Sequence record: PQ850606.1
From: Escherichia phage HeidiAbel_Bas97
Reading direction: 5' to 3' (one strand)
Length of the DNA stretch: 41,040 nt
Below are positions 7,372 to 29,682 of the stretch, in pieces (within the stretch, counting starts at the first letter, position 1; each line of letters opens with the position of its first letter). The translations under genes and the position numbers were made by a program. The notes beneath the pieces are model-generated. The model saw only the letters and a list, made by a program, of their open reading frames with translations, made no database searches and was not told the origin of the DNA.

Positions 7372-7703
7372 TGCCCGCGCCGTCCTGGGAAAACCTGGAC
7401 GACTTTTTTGACCTTGACACCAACGGCGGGTTTGCATTTCCCACCGTTATTCATTCGCAAAAAGGTTGGACCAGAACAATTAACGCCATCTTTGATGATC
7501 CGTACTTCAACGCGCAAATTGGCGAGTATGAAGCGGACACCAGCAGCCCGCGCATCACGGCAAAGGAATCTGACCTGGCTGGCATCCTGCGTGGTGACAC
7601 AATCATTGTGGCCGGTGAAACCTTCGACGTGCTGGCATCCCCGGAACAGGATGGCACAGGCACTGCCGTGGTGAGGATGACGCGCCAAGATGCTGCACTT
7701 TGA
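7371..7703 (+). CDS. Putative head-tail joining / head closure protein
   Basis: Position plus conserved C-terminal pattern (RGDTIIVAGETFDV...DGTGTAVV) typical of phage head-tail joining proteins. Confidence 0.5.
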   Translation: MPAPSWENLDDFFDLDTNGGFAFPTVIHSQKGWTRTINAIFDDPYFNAQIGEYEADTSSPRITAKESDLAGILRGDTIIVAGETFDVLASPEQDGTGTAVVRMTRQDAAL

Positions 7704-8244
7704 CCTGGATTGGCAACAACTGCGCGGCGTAGCCACTGAACTGGAAGCCAGTGAAAAGCAGTTCAAAGCCTCATTAAGCCGCGCATGTAACCGGACGGCG
7801 GCAACCCTGCGCAAAATGTCTGGCCGTGGCCTGAAAGATGAACTGCAACTGCGCACAATGGCAGCTATGCGAAAGCGCCTGAAATCCATCAGGCTGCGCA
7901 CGCGCCAACAGGGCGTTGTGTTGTGGTACGGCTTAAATGATTTGCCGGTGAGTAGCTTTAAGGGCCGCGCCAAGCAGACCAGCGACGGGGCCACGTTCCG
8001 TGACCAGAAATTTGACGGTGCATTTGTGGGCCGCAGCACGGTGAAAGGCAAACGCACAGTGTTTAAACGTGCTGGCAAAGCACGCCTGCCAATCACTGAA
8101 CAGTTGATGCCCATTAAGGACAAAGCCGAAGTCTTCATTGAAGATGAAATCTTCACGCAGGTTGAAGAAATATTCTGGAAGCACTTCGAACGCGATATTA
8201 AGGCGCGCGTAAAATATTTTGATACATCTGACAGGTGGGCATAA
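7690..8244 (+). CDS. Putative virion morphogenesis / tail completion protein
   Basis: Basic 184-aa protein between head-completion and baseplate genes; translationally coupled to neighbours. Confidence 0.4.
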   Translation: MLHFDLDWQQLRGVATELEASEKQFKASLSRACNRTAATLRKMSGRGLKDELQLRTMAAMRKRLKSIRLRTRQQGVVLWYGLNDLPVSSFKGRAKQTSDGATFRDQKFDGAFVGRSTVKGKRTVFKRAGKARLPITEQLMPIKDKAEVFIEDEIFTQVEEIFWKHFERDIKARVKYFDTSDRWA

Positions 8245-22818: not shown

Positions 22819-22895
22819 TGGCGACCCCTACAGGAATCGAACCTGTAACCTACAGCTTAGAAGGCTGTCGCTCTATCCGGTTGAGCTAAGGGGCC
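22819..22895 (-). tRNA. tRNA-Arg (anticodon UCU), 77 nt with encoded CCA
   Basis: Reverse complement folds by hand into a full cloverleaf: 7-bp acceptor stem with one G-U pair, D arm, anticodon loop CUUCUAA, T-loop TTCGATT, discriminator G and CCA. Confidence 0.85.
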
Positions 22896-22963: not shown

Positions 22964-23163
22964 GTTTTGCCTATCGGCTAAGTGCTTGTAATTCCTCGCT
23001 TATTAACACTGTTGCATTCCGCTTAGAAGGCGGTTACAGTGGCATAATCGCAAGTCATCACAAATCACGCGAACAGCCACTAAGCCACTGCGTTTAAACA
23101 TCATTCTGCATCATCCCCGGCTAAGTGTTTGCGTTCAGATCCTGTTTTGACTTGTGCCGAACC

Positions 23164-23199: not shown

Positions 23200-24411
23200 A
23201 TGCTGACAGAACGCCAGATACAGGCGGCCATGCGCGCCGTGACCAGTGAAACAGTGTTGAACGATGGGGCCGCAGGACGTGGCAGCGGAAGCCTGCGCCT
23301 GCGCATCCGTGCCGGGGCCAAAGGGCCGAACGCTACCTGGCAGGCCGTCTGGTGGAACGCCGGAAAACAGACCAGCAAGGCGCTTGGCCGCTACCCGGAT
23401 TTGAGCCTGGCCGACGCGCGCCGGAAGTATGAAACCGAAGTGCGCGACGTGCTGACGGCTGGCCGCGACCCAAACGCAGTGGTTGCAATGGCCGAAAGCC
23501 CGACCATTGAAAAACTGTTCCAGGCTTACATCCAGTACCTGCGCGACAAAGAGACGGCGACCACCCACACATCAGAACATCTGCTGCTGACCGGCAAATA
23601 CAACGCCGCTGATTTGCTTGGCCGCAACACCATTGCGTCAACCATCGAACCTGCCGACATCGCCAACGTGCTGGCCAAAGGCGTGAAGCGTGGCGCACGC
23701 CGAACCACCGACATGCAGCGCACCGCCATGATGGCCGCATTTAATTGGGCGATGAAATCGACACACGATTACACGCAGGAAAACCGCATGGATTGGGGGC
23801 TGAAATATAACCCTGTTGCAGCCGTTCCGCGCGACCAGGCAGCCAACCGCACGCTGGATAGGAACCTGTCAGCGGAGGAAATGAAGCACGTATGGGATAA
23901 CGCGCCGGAACAAAGCGGCGACGTGATGCGCCTGGTGATGTGCACCGGCCAGCGCGTCATTGAAGTCATGCGCATAGCTGGTGCTGACGTGGACCTGAAA
24001 GCCAGGCTGTGGACGATGCCAGCCAGGAAAACAAAGGGCCGCAAGCATACCCACATGGTGCCGCTGACCACGCAGGCGGTTGACATCCTGACCACGCTGA
24101 TTGACCTGTACGGTGACGGTTACCTGTTCCCTGCCCGCGCTGGCGCTAAGGGTGACATTATCGGAATCCCAAGCGTCAGCCGTGGTGCCAGCCGCATGGC
24201 AGGCATTAAGCCGTTCACCCCGCGCGACCTGCGCCGCACCTGGAAGTCACGCGCCGGTGACGCTGGCATTGACAGGTTCACGCGTGACCTTATCCAGCAG
24301 CACGCGCAGACTGACACCGGCAGCAAACATTATGACCGGTTTGACTACCTGCCGCAGATGCGCGAGGCGATGAATAAATGGGAAATATGGTTGCGAAATG
24401 CTATAGCGTGA
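23200..24411 (+). CDS. int: Tyrosine-type site-specific integrase (P4-like, with N-terminal arm-binding domain)
   Basis: 403 aa; N-terminus matches the P4-type integrase arm-binding pattern (LTERQIQAA...LNDGAAGRGSGSLRLRIRAGAKGPNATWQAVWW...LGRYPDLSLADARRK); C-terminal catalytic region with R, H..H and Y; adjacent to a tRNA. Confidence 0.85.
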   Translation: MLTERQIQAAMRAVTSETVLNDGAAGRGSGSLRLRIRAGAKGPNATWQAVWWNAGKQTSKALGRYPDLSLADARRKYETEVRDVLTAGRDPNAVVAMAESPTIEKLFQAYIQYLRDKETATTHTSEHLLLTGKYNAADLLGRNTIASTIEPADIANVLAKGVKRGARRTTDMQRTAMMAAFNWAMKSTHDYTQENRMDWGLKYNPVAAVPRDQAANRTLDRNLSAEEMKHVWDNAPEQSGDVMRLVMCTGQRVIEVMRIAGADVDLKARLWTMPARKTKGRKHTHMVPLTTQAVDILTTLIDLYGDGYLFPARAGAKGDIIGIPSVSRGASRMAGIKPFTPRDLRRTWKSRAGDAGIDRFTRDLIQQHAQTDTGSKHYDRFDYLPQMREAMNKWEIWLRNAIA

Positions 24412-24634
24412 TGTAGAGTTATTTTAAGCAGACGGTGGAGGCGCTCCACGCCGGAGACGTAACCGGCACGCACCGTGATGCGCTTTTGCGAACACTTCCA
24501 ACCCCCAGGGTGTTACCTCGCAACGTGAAAGCGCATCGCAGTGCGACATTCGCACAGACTGGAACTTACCCGACAAGTGATTCCAATAAGGCAGGTGATC
24601 TGTATCTCGCATCACAGCGTCACGTGACACAAAA

Positions 24635-24655
24635 CCCCGCTTAGGCGGGGTTTTT
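24635..24655. terminator. Bidirectional rho-independent terminator between int and the convergent leftward operon
   Basis: AAAA-CCCCGC-TTAG-GCGGGG-TTTTTCTTT. Confidence 0.6.
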
Positions 24656-24661
24656 CTTTGG

Positions 24662-25345
24662 TCATTCGTCGCTGCTTTCGTCATCGCCTTCCGGCGTCAT
24701 CGCGCCATGTTCCGGGCAGTGAGGCGGCCCGACTTCCAGCCATTTTTGCGTGACCCGAACCGTGTAGCCACATTCCTGGCATTCACACTTTTTCAGCCTG
24801 GTGGTTTGCTTAGGCTTCGCTGTGGACGCGCCGCCGACCGGTGCAACTTCGATTTCTTCCCCTTCCCCATCGTCACCGCCTTCATCCAGGCCAATGCGCA
24901 GGCGTGGCACCTTTATGGACATGCCACGGTCAAACGTCAGCTTGGCGTGTGGCATCGGGCCAAGTTCGTCCAGGAACGGTTTGACGTACTCTTTGAATTT
25001 CTCGCCAGGCGTGGTGGCGGTCATCGGTCCATTCAGGCCAACAGCCTTGCACACCGTGGCAAACGCACCCTTATGGCCGCAGTCAAAACCAACGGTGGCG
25101 TGCGTCAGTTCGTGCCACAGGTGGTTTGCTACCAGGTACGGTTCCACCTGGTCTGGCATGATGAAAATTTCAAACGTGTTGTCTGAACTGCACTTGCTGT
25201 GCCAGCACTGTGCCGCCGTACTGGAACGCGCGCCGCTGCTGCAAAAGCCAACCGACACGCGGAATTTAGGCATTTCGTAGCCGAATTCTTTAAAGCGCGG
25301 CGCAAACTTCGCCGCCAAAGCATTTAACCAACCTTCACGGTCCAT
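24662..25345 (-). CDS. SprT-like zinc metallopeptidase domain protein with C-terminal zinc ribbon
   Basis: HExxH motif (WHELTHA) in the N-terminal domain; acidic Gly-rich linker; C-terminal CxxC...CPEH zinc-ribbon-like motif. Confidence 0.5.
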   Translation of the reverse strand: MDREGWLNALAAKFAPRFKEFGYEMPKFRVSVGFCSSGARSSTAAQCWHSKCSSDNTFEIFIMPDQVEPYLVANHLWHELTHATVGFDCGHKGAFATVCKAVGLNGPMTATTPGEKFKEYVKPFLDELGPMPHAKLTFDRGMSIKVPRLRIGLDEGGDDGEGEEIEVAPVGGASTAKPKQTTRLKKCECQECGYTVRVTQKWLEVGPPHCPEHGAMTPEGDDESSDE

Positions 25346-25443
25346 ATATATTTCCTCGCAATGCGTTTAAACGTGTTTAGATTATACAAAGCCAAAGAAA
25401 AACCCGCCATAACGGCGGGCTGATTACTTAGAATGATTTGGAA

Positions 25444-25932
25444 TTAAAACGGGATGTCATCGTCAAAATCCATCGGCGGTTCGTTTCCTGCGCCCTGTGC
25501 TGGTGGCCGCTGCTGGCCGCCACCGCTGAACTGCTGGCCGCCACCAGGTTGCTGCTGTTGGCGCTGCCCACCGGCCTGGTTATCGTTGGCCGCTGACAGC
25601 ATCAACAACCGGCCATTCATGCCCACCACGATTTCAGTTGTGTAGCGATCAACGCCAGCCTGGTCCTGCCACTTGCGCGTTTGCAGCGCGCCTTCAATGA
25701 ACACCTTGCTGCCTTTGCGCAGGTACTGGCTGGCGATTTCTGCCAGCTTTCCGAAGATGACCACGCGGTGCCATTCCGTTTTTTCTTTCTTCTCCCCTGT
25801 CTGCTTATCCTTCCAGGTTTCAGACGTGGCGATTGATAACTGTGCCACACCGTTGCCGTTCGGCAGCGTGCGGAATTCTGGATCGTTTCCTAAGTTGCCA
25901 ATGATTTCTACTTTGTTCAATGAACCGGCCAT
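25444..25932 (-). CDS. ssb: Single-stranded DNA-binding protein
   Basis: OB-fold SSB N-terminus, Gly/Gln-rich linker and acidic C-terminal tail ending DFDDDIPF. Confidence 0.9.
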
Positions 25933-26150: not shown

Positions 26151-26577
26151 TGTGCACCCCGAATTCACCAGGTGCAGCCGTGCACTTTTCGTGGTGGTAA
26201 CCATCCTGGAAACCGCAAACAGGGCAGCAATCGTGCGGCTGTTCGTTGTCATTACCAGCTACCGGCTGGCGGTGACGTTCCAGCCAGATAACCGCGCCAG
26301 ACAGGTAGACGATTGCGCCCAACAGTTCGCGCACTGCGGCGTCAACCTGGCCACGGTTGGCCATGCCCTGCGCTTCTTCGGATTTCTTATCCGCCTGACC
26401 CAAAATGAAGCCAACTCCACGGCGGTCACCAATGGTCTGCATAGGCTGCTGGTGGAATGGCTTGTCATCAGCGTGACGTTCCGCGCCTTTTCCGGTGGCG
26501 GCCTGGTCAAAGGCGCGTTCCAGTACATCAGCCAGACGTTCATAACCACTAACATTCTTCATTGTCGTTTGCCCCAA
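26143..26577 (-). CDS. Conserved hypothetical phage protein (start may be 26562)
   Basis: 144-aa ORF in the early-left operon; C-terminal Cys/His cluster (HDCCPVCG...HHEKC). Confidence 0.45.
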   Translation of the reverse strand: MGQTTMKNVSGYERLADVLERAFDQAATGKGAERHADDKPFHQQPMQTIGDRRGVGFILGQADKKSEEAQGMANRGQVDAAVRELLGAIVYLSGAVIWLERHRQPVAGNDNEQPHDCCPVCGFQDGYHHEKCTAAPGEFGVHNG

Positions 26578-26770
26578 TCATGTGTTTTGCTTCATACGCT
26601 TCCACGCTGGTGATGGAGTAGCGAACGCGTGAGCCAAATTTTGTATAGGCTGGCCCTTTGCCTTTGTTGCGCCAGTTCGCCAGGGTTCCGGTGGTAACTG
26701 CGCCGTTCCAGCGCAGAACCAGTTCCTGTGGCGTCAGATACGTGCTTTGTTTCTGTGCCGGTTGTGCCAT
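26549..26770 (-). CDS. Excisionase / AlpA-like HTH DNA-binding protein
   Basis: LTPQELVLRWNGAVTTGTLANWRNKGKGPAYTKFGSRVRYSITSVEAY matches the Xis/AlpA-type winged-helix pattern. Confidence 0.6.
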   Translation of the reverse strand: MAQPAQKQSTYLTPQELVLRWNGAVTTGTLANWRNKGKGPAYTKFGSRVRYSITSVEAYEAKHMIGANDNEEC

Positions 26771-26783
26771 TTTTTACCCTTTC

Positions 26784-27773
26784 TTACTGTGCGCCGGTGC
26801 CCATCACCTGGCTGTTTAAATCATCAACGTCCTGCGCATCGCCGTTGGCGTTGGCGCGCTGTTCGTCATATGCGCGGGCGGCTTGCAACAATGATTGTTT
26901 GAATTCATCGCCCAGCTTTTTGCGAATTGCTGGTGGTGTTTTGTCCCAGCATTCCTGCGTGTACTGCTCACCCTGTTCTGTAACGCCGCGCAGCTTGTTG
27001 CGGTAGGCTTCCACCTTCGGATCTAACTTGTTGCCACCCTGAACCCACTGACGCAGCGCCAAACCGTCCTGTGCACTGATGTAGCCAGTTTCACGCCCTA
27101 AGATGCCGCGCAACTCTTCCGGGCACTTCATGACCTGCTGCGCGCTGCCAGAATCCCACATCATCAGGCTGGCGGTCATTTCAAACATCACGTTCTTTTC
27201 CGTCACCGGCATGATGCCTTGCGGTTCATATTCCGTTTTACCGTTGACCTTCACCAGTTTCACTTTTTCACGTGCGCGGATGCAGCAGATGATGTGCATG
27301 TTGGATTGCAACAACGCGTTCATGAAGCGTTTGTGTTCAGCCTTCGCACGGTTCCACTGTGGCTTCATCGGGTTGGCCAGGGTGGCGATTTCTTCGCAGC
27401 CGCCTGTTCCTTCCCATTCGTGGCTGATGGAGTCGATCACCAGCACTTCAACGCCTGCCTGTTCAAATTCGCGGATGGCGTCAATGTATCGCTGCGGGCT
27501 GAAAGGCGGTTCTAAATCACCAATCCAAAACGCGTCCGGGCGTTCTTTCAGTCCAAGTGATTCCTGGATTTTGTCATAAGTGTCATCGCTGGCATACAGT
27601 GAGCCACGGCGGTTTTCAGTATCGAGAAACCCAACCTTTGTGCCGTCACCGTTGGCCAGGCCATATGCCAGCATAAGTGCTGACAGGGTTTTGCCACTGC
27701 CGCTGATACCTGCCAGGCCGATGACCAGGCGCGCGCCTTCACGTTCTGCTTTACGAATATTAATTACTGCCAT
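26784..27773 (-). CDS. Sak4-like RecA-fold ATPase (single-strand annealing / recombination)
   Basis: Walker A GISGSGKT near the N-terminus; ~330 aa; sits between an exonuclease and SSB. Confidence 0.6.
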   Translation of the reverse strand: MAVINIRKAEREGARLVIGLAGISGSGKTLSALMLAYGLANGDGTKVGFLDTENRRGSLYASDDTYDKIQESLGLKERPDAFWIGDLEPPFSPQRYIDAIREFEQAGVEVLVIDSISHEWEGTGGCEEIATLANPMKPQWNRAKAEHKRFMNALLQSNMHIICCIRAREKVKLVKVNGKTEYEPQGIMPVTEKNVMFEMTASLMMWDSGSAQQVMKCPEELRGILGRETGYISAQDGLALRQWVQGGNKLDPKVEAYRNKLRGVTEQGEQYTQECWDKTPPAIRKKLGDEFKQSLLQAARAYDEQRANANGDAQDVDDLNSQVMGTGAQ

Positions 27774-27942
27774 TATTGTTGCCCTTAAATGATTTATTGA
27801 ATTTCAGGCCAGCAAACACAATCAAACTGACTGGCCACAGAAGTGCACAAACAAAAGTTACAAAGTAATCCCGCTTATCCTTGTGGAACCAGCACCCATA
27901 GAAAAAGAGCACCAGAACCAGATAGATCAGGGCGTCCATCAC
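27760..27942 (-). CDS. Small hydrophobic membrane protein (hypothetical)
   Basis: 60-aa ORF with two hydrophobic segments, translationally coupled between the exonuclease and Sak4 genes. Confidence 0.3.
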   Translation of the reverse strand: MMDALIYLVLVLFFYGCWFHKDKRDYFVTFVCALLWPVSLIVFAGLKFNKSFKGNNNGSN

Positions 27943-29057
27943 ACCGCACCCAACAGGTGTTGATTCTTGTTGGCGTGCCAGCCTGGCAGGCTGATGGTCT
28001 GGATTTTATCGCCGTAGCCAGGCCAAACACCGGTGCGCACGCATTCAGCGTACACGCGCAAATCGTGCTGGTACTGCGCGCGGCCTAAATCCACGCTTTC
28101 AGAATCCAGAACGTAGACACCAACGCCATAAGGTGGCTTCTTCTCAACCGCGATAAACACAAACGCTTTTGGGCGCTTGCCAGTGGCCTGCTGCACGCCG
28201 TCCAGGTAGTAGGCTGCCTGCACGTCATAGCGCCAGTTGGCGATTGATTTTGCGAACCCTTCCGGGCTGGCATCTTCGGTGGTTTTCAAATCCACAATCA
28301 CGTTGTCATCGCGCCACCAGTCTGGACGGCAGCGGCACAGAACGCCGGTGGTTGCATCAATCCAGTAAACAGACTTTTCCGCTTCTCCAGGGCAACTGGT
28401 CAGCAGTGAGCCAGCAGCAGGGTGCGCATGAACTGCGGCGGCCATCGCGTGCAACTGGTCCCACGTTTCCGGCGTCAGCACCATGCGGCCTGGGTTGTTT
28501 TCGGTCCATTCTGCCAGCACGTCTGACCACAGGGTGACTTTTACGCCGTTGCTGCGCAGCAGGTATGCCAAATCGTGACGGCTGCCGCTGGTAGGTAGCA
28601 GGCCGGTGCGGCTTTCGTTCGCCTTCTCGATAATGGCTTTCAGTTCCGCACCCTTCATGGCTTCCAGTTCACTGGTTTCACCGGTCCAGCCTGTGAATTC
28701 CATGATGCGTGCAATCAGTTCGTTTTTGTTTCCGCTGGTGGGCAGCTTCGCCAGGCGGCCTTCGTTCAGCTTGTTGACCATTTCCACCAGCACTTCGCGG
28801 TCATCAATGGCATCAGGCACATCAGAACGGCGCAGCGCCAGGCAATACGTATCTGCGAACACATCCGGTTCTAAAATCAGCGCGTGCGCTGCGGTGCCGA
28901 GTTCCTGTGCTGCTGTTGGCGTGCGGTCATTCGCAGCCGTCACAACAGCGTGGTAGTGCATCGGGCTGCGGTGCACCAAATCCAGGCCAGATTTACTGAT
29001 GCCTGGGCCGCCGTGGTATTCAGCGTTTGGAATACCTTCGTAAACTCCTGGTTTCAT
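27939..29057 (-). CDS. PD-(D/E)XK exonuclease (RecE/YqaJ-like)
   Basis: Start MKPGVYEGIPNAEYHG with GAGG RBS; catalytic-like IVDLKTT; the track ORF extension to 29114 is rejected. Confidence 0.7.
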   Translation of the reverse strand: MKPGVYEGIPNAEYHGGPGISKSGLDLVHRSPMHYHAVVTAANDRTPTAAQELGTAAHALILEPDVFADTYCLALRRSDVPDAIDDREVLVEMVNKLNEGRLAKLPTSGNKNELIARIMEFTGWTGETSELEAMKGAELKAIIEKANESRTGLLPTSGSRHDLAYLLRSNGVKVTLWSDVLAEWTENNPGRMVLTPETWDQLHAMAAAVHAHPAAGSLLTSCPGEAEKSVYWIDATTGVLCRCRPDWWRDDNVIVDLKTTEDASPEGFAKSIANWRYDVQAAYYLDGVQQATGKRPKAFVFIAVEKKPPYGVGVYVLDSESVDLGRAQYQHDLRVYAECVRTGVWPGYGDKIQTISLPGWHANKNQHLLGAV

Positions 29058-29113
29058 TATGTTACCTCGCAATTGACTGATGATATAACGTGATACAGCG
29101 TGAAGATGAAGCA

Positions 29114-29143
29114 AGTATAATTAAGTAATATCGTTGCTGTCAA
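29114..29143 (-). promoter_or_regulatory. Putative sigma70 promoter for the leftward recombination operon (TTGACA, 18-nt spacer, TATACT on the minus strand)
   Basis: Near-consensus hexamers about 50 nt upstream of the exonuclease ATG, overlapping the repressor gene stop. Confidence 0.4.
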
Positions 29144-29682
29144 ATCTTTCTGTTCAGTCCAATTACTTTGCCGATTACTTCCAGATCGTCATCTGTGCAG
29201 ACTTCATCAAATTTATACAGTTCGTTGTCACAAAGGACGCGCACATTGCCATCAATCCTGCGCTGACACCTTACCATCCTGGCTTCGCCATTCATTGCAA
29301 TGGCGTATATCCCGGCGTTGTCTATCCACGAAATTGACTTGTCGATGACACAGCTATCACCATTCAACAATGTGGGTTCCATCGAGTCAGTCACGACCTT
29401 TACAACGGCCAGGCTTTCCGCTGGCAGGCCGTAAAAAGCCGACATTGTTGACATCACGCCGTCATTGAAAAAAAGCGCGTTTGCAGTGACTGCGGTTGCG
29501 CTCAGTAATTCTTCTTTACGGCAACCAATAGCGTCAGCCAGCCTGTCGAGAATGGGCAGCGTTACGCGCTGCGGTTCACGTTCCCACCGGCTGACCGTCA
29601 CGGCGGTGGTTCCGAGCTTTTCAGCCACGTCCTGCAACGTCATTCCTGCCGCCTGGCGGCGCTCCCTTATGCGGTTTGGCAT
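29140..29682 (-). CDS. CI-like repressor (HTH-XRE plus S24 LexA-like peptidase domain)
   Basis: N-terminal HTH (MTLQDVAEKLGTTAVTVSRWE); C-terminal S24-like domain with Ser in DSMEPT and a downstream Lys; divergent from the rightward operon. Confidence 0.8.
   Translation of the reverse strand: MPNRIRERRQAAGMTLQDVAEKLGTTAVTVSRWEREPQRVTLPILDRLADAIGCRKEELLSATAVTANALFFNDGVMSTMSAFYGLPAESLAVVKVVTDSMEPTLLNGDSCVIDKSISWIDNAGIYAIAMNGEARMVRCQRRIDGNVRVLCDNELYKFDEVCTDDDLEVIGKVIGLNRKI

Follow-up and report, generated by a model that had tools for sequence, protein, structure and literature searches.

Background

Proteases of the SprT family are well understood only in eukaryotes, where human Spartan (SPRTN, PDB 6MDX) and yeast Wss1 act as DNA-dependent proteases in the repair of DNA-protein crosslinks. 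Bacterial SprT (E. coli YggI; PF10263 and PF17283; HAMAP MF_00746) combines a small zincin domain bearing an HExxH motif with a C-terminal zinc ribbon, and is the product of a chromosomal housekeeping gene. ArdC of plasmid R388 (PDB 6I89) is an HExxH zincin with a presumed nucleic-acid-binding module that is carried by a mobile element. Here we describe a gene of Escherichia phage HeidiAbel_Bas97 (sequence record PQ850606.1), a Jilinvirus-like temperate myovirus whose nearest relative is Salmonella phage PT1, which very probably specifies a SprT-type metalloprotease and which appears to behave as an exchangeable, insulated cassette. All coordinates given below are positions in the window, i.e. 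the whole 41,040-nucleotide stretch of DNA that was analyzed. The product might function as a protease associated with DNA that removes proteins from the element's own DNA, a proposal to which we assign close to even prospects.

The family is present in 163 deposited phage genomes, including many Arthrobacter, Microbacterium and Streptomyces phages in which it is annotated as 'SprT-like protease', and on 74 mostly sphingomonad plasmids, where it is labeled 'SprT-like domain-containing protein' or 'transcription elongation protein SprT'. The homolog from Klebsiella phage KA2-1 likewise bears the name 'SprT-like protease'. As homologs already carry such labels, the protein belongs to a known kind, one that is ordinary and annotated in many phages; the literature found on phage SprT-like peptidases comprises annotations or structural look-alikes only, and no experiments. 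What seems to be undescribed is the organization of the gene as a swappable unit, which has terminators of its own and a palindromic, conserved control site.

Affinities of the protein

The gene is positioned in the window as follows:

24662 to 25345, minus strand: coding sequence of the predicted SprT-like metalloprotease (open reading frame listing), 227 residues, stop codon at 24662-24664

Aligned with its PT1 counterpart, it shows 25 differences over 684 nucleotides, of which 24 fall at third codon positions and none alters the protein sequence. This tally of 25 synonymous to zero non-synonymous differences indicates a real gene that is, judging from the pattern of substitution, under strong purifying selection. 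Searches with the window protein recovered 147 homologs at E<=1e-3, while its sole library match was PHROG 6361 (E=1e-74), whose function is listed as unknown; the family as a whole amounts to 4056 cluster representatives (50% identity clusters) at E<=1e-3. In an alignment of 49 sequences, comprising the window protein and 48 homologs with 44-89% identity to it, the residues H78, E79, H82, H91, C189, C192, C210, P211 and H213 are invariant in 49/49.

Comparison of a 238-sequence profile of the family with that of the E. coli SprT (YggI) family using hhalign aligned the two catalytic domains over 84 columns with E=6e-6 and 85% probability, and placed H91 of the window protein on H95 of SprT. 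Both families have this downstream histidine in an H-G/K-x-x-F/W motif, such that the third His coincides. A further connection is provided by a relative, P0253, which matches the family profile with E=7e-47 and also passes the cut-off of PF10263 (32.6 versus 25.6 bits). Weak matches to PF10263 below its threshold are seen in 41/49 family members (best E=1e-4), and the window protein itself does not reach the gathering threshold. Hence, the case for PF10263 membership comes from the P0253 bridge and the profile-profile comparison rather than from a direct Pfam score. Among viral predicted structures the best match was a Bordetella phage protein named SprT (E=1e-15). Taken together, these relationships argue strongly for a SprT-type metalloprotease.

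Two results weigh against this assignment. Firstly, the window protein by itself recovered no match in Pfam (even at E<=10), in NCBIfam or among the PDB sequences. Secondly, comparison of its ribbon with SprT ribbon profiles was non-significant (E=0.011, 4% probability; controls 0.17 and 0.41). A resemblance seen by eye between 'CECQECGYTVRVTQKW' of the ribbon and 'CKCQEHQLTVRRHNRV' of E. coli SprT had suggested homology of the two ribbons, a claim that was dropped because of this profile test. PF17283 (Zn_ribbon_SprT) gave no match in any of the 49 family members, and the CxxC...CxxH ribbon occupies the position equivalent to that of the bacterial SprT ribbon. A Foldseek search against the PDB recovered nothing at E<=0.001, and the 49-sequence profile detected only noise among PDB sequences (invasin, E=0.15). 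Minigluzincins (proabylysin 4JIU, projannalysin 4JIX, selecase 4QHF) show only 10-18% sequence identity to the window protein. They are gluzincins with a Glu as the third ligand, and are stand-alone archaeal proteins devoid of a ribbon.

Domain architecture and predicted fold

The protein may be divided into the following predicted parts:

24911 to 25345, minus strand: catalytic SprT-like domain, residues 1-145, with a helix, a three-stranded sheet, the active-site helix 69-89 and two further helices
25100 to 25114, minus strand: HExxH motif (H78-E79-L-T-H82), read from the sequence, with two predicted zinc ligands and the catalytic glutamate
25073 to 25075, minus strand: codon of H91 within the GHKGxF motif (GHKGAF in the window protein), predicted third zinc ligand, corresponding to H95 (PHGKEW) of E. 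coli SprT
24818 to 24910, minus strand: acidic, Gly-rich flexible linker, residues 146-176, net charge -6, containing LDEGGDDGEGEEIE
24698 to 24817, minus strand: basic arm and zinc ribbon, residues 177-216, KPKQTTRLKK-CxC-QEC-GYTVRVTQKW...CPEHG, net charge +3
24665 to 24697, minus strand: acidic C-terminal tail, residues 217-227, net charge -6, conserved in composition and not in sequence

A structure model with a mean predicted local distance difference test score (pLDDT) of 86.7 has two folded domains joined by a disordered linker. Residues 1-145 are predicted to adopt the minimal zincin fold common to Spartan and Wss1, with the HExxH motif on helix 69-89. The linker, which varies in both length and sequence across the alignment, falls below a pLDDT of 50 at residues 152-170, and the ribbon is modeled at about 90 or above from residue 181 to approximately 220 (block means of 77 for residues 171-180 and of 90-94 thereafter). 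The C-terminal segment, which reads KKCECQECGYTVRVTQKWLEVGPPHCPEHG, includes the most conserved stretch of the family, namely the ribbon, where both peptide patterns picked as most conserved are located. Within the basic arm and ribbon Q180, R183, K186, C189, C192, G193, Y194, T195, R197, W202, C210, P211, H213 and G214 are invariant.

A preliminary description, made from the sequence alone, had recognized an HExxH motif (WHELTHA), an acidic Gly-rich linker and a C-terminal CxxC...CPEH ribbon, and had named the protein a SprT-like HExxH metallopeptidase with a zinc ribbon. All three elements are borne out, respectively at residues 77-83, at residues 146-176 and as C189-x2-C192...C210-P-E-H213; the family name is supported by the profile, Pfam-bridge and fold evidence, and the similarity to the E. 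coli SprT family extends beyond the motif.

Relative to bacterial SprT, the window protein has an extra helical segment, an acidic disordered linker of ~30 residues and an acidic tail, and its family is borne by phages and plasmids. It differs from Spartan and Wss1 in being devoid of ubiquitin-, SUMO-, PCNA- or p97-binding motifs and in having its zinc module as a separate ribbon on a flexible linker, rather than as a sub-domain packed beside the active site.

Genomic neighborhoods and a possible role on DNA

We surveyed the neighborhoods of the gene in 83 related loci. Upstream on the same strand these most often encode an SSB (39 loci), an AAA_24 ATPase (35) and a PD-(D/E)XK exonuclease (34), with a convergent integrase downstream in 22/83. 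A ParB gene adjoins the SprT-like gene in 12/83 loci. In other backbones the neighbors are a family A DNA polymerase with a clamp-loader-like ATPase, a 5'-3' exonuclease, a SNF2 helicase or a primase-helicase, and in some loci the gene adjoins the gpD end of a P2-like tail cluster. On plasmids the family is found between the replication initiator and parA-parG (Sphingobium pMI4, L214; a Ralstonia plasmid, L215), a placement that echoes the phage loci with a ParB-like gene directly downstream (L031-L044). A second, lytic-looking phage group (L092, L122, L130, L133 and L196; also L084-L090) has a shorter SprT-like protein, whose gene is followed by those for a MoxR-type AAA+ ATPase and then a VWA protein; a primase-helicase and a terminase are also encoded. 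This pairing of a protease with an unfoldase recalls that of SPRTN with p97 (PMC9127365). The common theme of these neighborhoods is mainly the element's machinery for DNA replication, recombination and segregation.

The invariant residues, the zincin domain with its HExxH motif and additional histidine, the ribbon and the neighbors with functions in DNA metabolism point, by analogy with Spartan, Wss1 and SprT, to a Spartan-like role on DNA. In such a scenario a SprT/Spartan-type zinc metalloprotease carried by a mobile element would act on or near the DNA of that element. In the way that the zinc-binding and basic regions of Spartan do, the ribbon and the basic arm would anchor the enzyme on nucleic acid or on a partner bound to DNA. 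By degrading proteins that are stuck on or crosslinked to the DNA of the element, the protease would then clear the way for replication, recombination or segregation. Expression might be held low because a protease of this type is dangerous; a palindrome spanning the predicted transcription start (see below) would then serve as an operator that keeps a potentially harmful enzyme under tight control.

Other observations on these loci speak against this scenario. The gene is dispensable, as it is absent from ECOO78, PPpW-3 and Alux-21, which would fit an accessory or conflict-related function as well as it fits repair. In several backbones it is situated at a prophage edge, and in a few loci (L066, L073) it lies beside defence-type cargo, consisting of a reverse transcriptase with an AAA_21 ATPase, or of PAAR, DUF4123 and PycTM; this setting would fit a role in conflict. 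One such role would be that of an exclusion or abortive-infection protease, which the prophage would express in the lysogen from a promoter belonging to the gene itself and which foreign DNA entering the cell would activate. The terminator-insulated unit with its own promoter-like element is indeed organized like a moron, and the edge position and defence-like neighbors would suit it. However, the defence models of PADLOC-DB 2.0 gave no match at E<=1 to any of the four family members tested (the window protein and three diverse relatives), and the family also occurs in the lytic-looking phages with terminase, primase-helicase and MoxR-VWA genes and in plasmid maintenance regions. Hence, we consider this explanation highly improbable.

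In the window itself the gene follows a leftward string of genes, with two small-protein genes (minus strand) between those for the HTH_17 protein and SSB:

29140 to 29682, minus strand: CI-like repressor with helix-turn-helix (HTH) and S24 domains
27939 to 29114, minus strand: PD-(D/E)XK exonuclease with a SAP domain
26784 to 27773, minus strand: AAA_24 ATPase
26549 to 26770, minus strand: HTH_17 protein, excisionase-like
25444 to 25932, minus strand: SSB gene (ssb), immediately preceding the SprT-like gene
23200 to 24411, plus strand: int, convergent with the SprT-like gene

A variable slot bounded by terminators

The space between ssb and int is delimited by two predicted terminators:

25401 to 25421, minus strand: intrinsic terminator, a hairpin and T-run after ssb (terminator scan)
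24631 to 24654, no strand assigned: bidirectional terminator hairpin between the 3' ends of the SprT-like gene and int, forming the downstream edge of the cassette (terminator scan)

The terminator after ssb is kept, with changes in the loop, in PT1, Arya, KA2-1 and MQ-4, and most of the distant loci with an SSB context have equivalent hairpins of approximately -6 to -22 kcal/mol (mostly -11 to -20), with two loci having none. The bidirectional terminator is conserved in relatives and is retained in ECOO78, whose slot holds an endonuclease gene. We compared the content of the slot between the window (24655-25400), L210 (15226-15760), L212 (22684-23267) and the end of L213. The SprT-like gene occupies the slot in the window, PT1, Arya, KA2-1, ep3 and MQ-4, a gene annotated as 'endonuclease' takes its place in ECOO78 and PPpW-3, and in Alux-21 the slot is empty. 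The variants keep the flanks, among them a block of conserved non-coding DNA and the terminator downstream. As the same slot is filled differently between retained flanks, the SprT-like gene appears to behave as an exchangeable and insulated cassette.

The preliminary description had regarded it as the last gene of the leftward operon, convergent with int. The convergence with int and the presence of ssb upstream are as described, and by position the gene is indeed the last of the string. As a statement about transcription this is doubtful, since a terminator lies between ssb and the gene, a -10-like hexamer and a palindrome also precede it, and relatives replace or delete the unit. The same description had pointed to related domains in ArdC-like anti-restriction proteins as well as in crosslink repair. 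Of these, the kinship with the crosslink-repair enzymes is better supported, and an anti-restriction role finds no specific support.

More generally, the product could be an anti-defence protease, made early by the incoming element, that cleaves a host restriction or defence protein. The variability of the slot among close relatives (SprT-like gene, endonuclease or nothing) is of the sort often seen in accessory conflict genes, and the gene's own promoter-like signals, together with the loci at prophage edges beside defence-type cargo, are compatible with such a function. One record of a Bordetella phage homolog bears the label 'antirestriction protein', as an annotation only, and in a comparative study of jumbo phages, SprT-like peptidases with a patchy distribution, which were not shown to be of the same family, were proposed to target host proteins (PMC7824862). 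The domain composition is against it: in Pfam searches neither the window protein nor its 48 relatives matched ArdC-N (PF08401), their N-terminus being the protease domain itself, and likewise no match to MPTase-PolyVal (PF18818) was recovered in the window protein or the family. ArdC, whose closest structural homolog is Spartan, has as the third metal ligand a Glu (E229) located on the next helix, where Spartan has a His (PMC7213743). The conserved third-ligand candidate of the present family is H91, and not the Glu of the ArdC-type gluzincin site. Moreover, as the E229A metal-site mutant of ArdC still promoted conjugation (PMC7213743), ArdC itself does not exemplify protease-dependent anti-restriction. 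The plasmid copies are located in the rep-par maintenance region, and identity is kept at 40-60% across alpha-, beta- and gammaproteobacterial hosts and at 28-39% in phages of Actinobacteria, which suggests that the target is universal and not a rapidly evolving defence protein. We accordingly rate an anti-defence function as unlikely.

The non-coding block (24470-24630), which lies downstream of int, is highly conserved at the nucleotide level in PT1, Arya, KA2-1 and MQ-4, and is also kept in ECOO78 and Alux-21, both of which are devoid of the SprT-like gene; Alux-21 has a tRNA-like insertion beside it, a fragment only. The block has no match in Rfam. It could represent attP, a 3' regulatory element of int or a small RNA.

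A palindromic site upstream of the gene

Between the ssb terminator and the start of the gene two further signals are discernible:

25381 to 25386, minus strand: -10-like hexamer TATAAT of a putative own promoter, read from the sequence (TATAAT, TAAAAT or TATTAT in relatives)
25364 to 25373, no strand assigned: perfect, operator-like palindrome CGTTTAAACG with the core GTTTAAAC, 7 nucleotides 3' of the -10-like hexamer and 5' of the ribosome-binding site

The palindrome is invariant in five aligned relatives. Its core occurs within 150 bp upstream of the gene in 64/73 distinct loci, including all those with an SSB (32/32) or ParB (9/9) context and 23/32 of the others; the observation covers the window, L002, L004, L005 and L011-L083. 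The density of the core is 7.1 per kb in the upstream regions versus 0.06 per kb elsewhere in the same loci. It accompanies proteins with identities down to 40% in alpha-, beta- and gammaproteobacterial hosts, where the surrounding DNA is unrelated. Across loci the palindrome lies 5-8 nucleotides 3' of a -10-like hexamer. The -35 region is poor in the window, and distant relatives have a TTGCGT that overlaps a second copy of the palindrome; 14 loci show this arrangement, of the form TTGCGTTTAAACG-N-TAGAAT-N-CGTTTAAAC, with the spacing TTGCGT-N17/18-TAGAAT. A simple promoter scan of the window did not list the site at 25381-25386. The palindrome is well supported as a cis-element of the cassette. 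Its layout is that of a repressor operator, and it may be regarded as a putative one. The literature, searched for operators with GTTTAAAC in them, yielded no relevant report and no known binding factor, and Rfam at E<=1 returned only a tRNA and terminator-driven noise, with no known RNA element. The motif was also considered as a LexA box and rejected as such, being identical in alpha-, beta- and gammaproteobacterial hosts. The SOS boxes of these three classes differ from one another, and none is known to match GTTTAAAC.

Actinobacteriophage SprT-like proteases from SEA-PHAGES (e.g. gp53 of Arthrobacter phage Crewmate) provide an informative comparison. They belong to the same family (28-39% identity by tblastn over ~93-96% of the length), retain the ribbon motif in the form KKQGTRMLK...GYVVRMTRKW and have a similar position at the end of the replication module beside an integrase, with a terminator and a promoter-like TTGCGT-N17-TACACT preceding the gene. 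They differ in that they have no GTTTAAAC palindrome upstream and in that the neighboring integrase is of the serine type.

The window contains a total of 6 copies of GTTTAAAC, against an expectation of ~0.4-0.7. Those other than the copy preceding the SprT-like gene are located as follows:

23092 to 23099: copy GCGTTTAAACA, ~100 bp upstream of the start of int
2094, 8061, 17351 and 31286: further copies, three in structural genes and one intergenic after the helicase gene

The three coding-region copies and the copy upstream of int recur in at least one relative without the SprT-like gene. Two of the coding-region copies, those in the terminase gene and in the gene at 7690-8244, are conserved in such relatives, and the structural-gene copies are therefore part of the backbone. 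The int-proximal copy is shared with Alux-21, where int is present and the SprT-like gene is not, and with the two viral contigs closest to the window, and is absent in more distant relatives.

One candidate reader of GTTTAAAC is the ribbon of the protease itself. Ribbon residues show no covariation with the upstream site, and the plasmid and actinophage homologs retain the ribbon where the site is absent. Together with the persistence of the int-proximal copy in Alux-21 without the gene, this weakens the possibility that the ribbon would bind the palindrome.

The palindrome also brings up the possibility of a regulatory protease, comparable to ImmA/IrrE (COG2856), that would serve the switch between lysis and lysogeny or a maintenance switch. 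It would cleave a DNA-bound repressor, possibly the GTTTAAAC binder, and thereby turn on genes such as its own or int. The location next to int and near the gene for the excisionase-like HTH_17 protein, the conserved operator-like site at its own promoter and the further copy upstream of int would be in keeping with this, as would the XRE-family regulator and toxin-antitoxin pair that adjoin the pMI4 homolog and the weak matches to Peptidase_M78 in 3/49 family members (best E=0.07). However, fold and profile place the protein with SprT/Spartan and not with M78. No cognate XRE-type repressor gene lies beside the gene in the window, and most loci have no adjacent repressor, unlike the ImmA-ImmR pairs. 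The CI-like repressor, ~4 kb away, has an S24 self-cleavage domain of its own and therefore needs no separate protease, while the int-proximal copy, present only in the closest relatives, persists in Alux-21 without the gene. A regulatory function of this type hence appears improbable.

A scan of a viral collection for the 14-mer TGCGTTTAAACGCA recovered mostly background, with a SprT-like homolog in 20/119 sampled loci; 18 of these 20 have 4-18 copies of the octamer, compared with 0.1-0.5 expected. In the second phage group introduced above, GTTTAAAC reaches 4-18 copies per 8-14 kb (roughly 0.4-1.3 per kb), where about 0.1-0.2 copies would be expected. They are located in promoter spacers, just 5' of ribosome-binding sites and within genes, in which they often read as Phe-Lys codons. 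A second palindrome, CGAACGTTCG, lies beside some of the sites in this group.

Implications

Returning to a protease that clears the element's DNA, an extended form of the proposal would treat the gene, its flanking terminators, the promoter and the GTTTAAAC operator as one self-contained and horizontally exchanged module, kept under tight, dedicated repression by the protein's own ribbon and basic arm or by another factor that recognizes GTTTAAAC. The octamers spread through the second phage group could then mean that the protease or a regulator is directed to specific sequences of the genome. We regard this extension as distinctly unlikely. If it is true, regulated and DNA-targeted proteolysis of the Spartan type would for the first time have a counterpart in bacteria or phages. 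If the product is instead an ordinary accessory protease, the analysis still offers a more informative annotation for PHROG 6361 and for the entries listed as 'hypothetical protein' in PT1, Arya, ep3, ECO1230-10 and MQ-4. As the family, which spans phages and plasmids of Proteobacteria and phages of Actinobacteria, is usually placed beside replication, recombination or partition genes, it offers a tractable entry to the question of whether mobile elements carry a 'protein-off-DNA' protease, for which the conserved GTTTAAAC site is an immediate experimental handle. It is the cassette structure and the operator traveling with it that are worth following up, rather than the protein type.

Other features of the window

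A near-consensus promoter-like site, TTGACA-18-TATACT (11/12), is present at 29114-29143, upstream of the exonuclease gene and inside the 3' end of the gene for the CI-like repressor. In ep3, ECOO78 and Alux-21 the gap between the exonuclease and helicase genes measures ~270 bp and has no annotated CI-like repressor gene. A complete tRNA-Arg gene (anticodon TCT), conserved in PT1, Arya and MQ-4, lies at 22819-22895 on the minus strand, between the ParB-like module and int. Its product may serve to read a rare codon, or the gene may be part of the attachment site.

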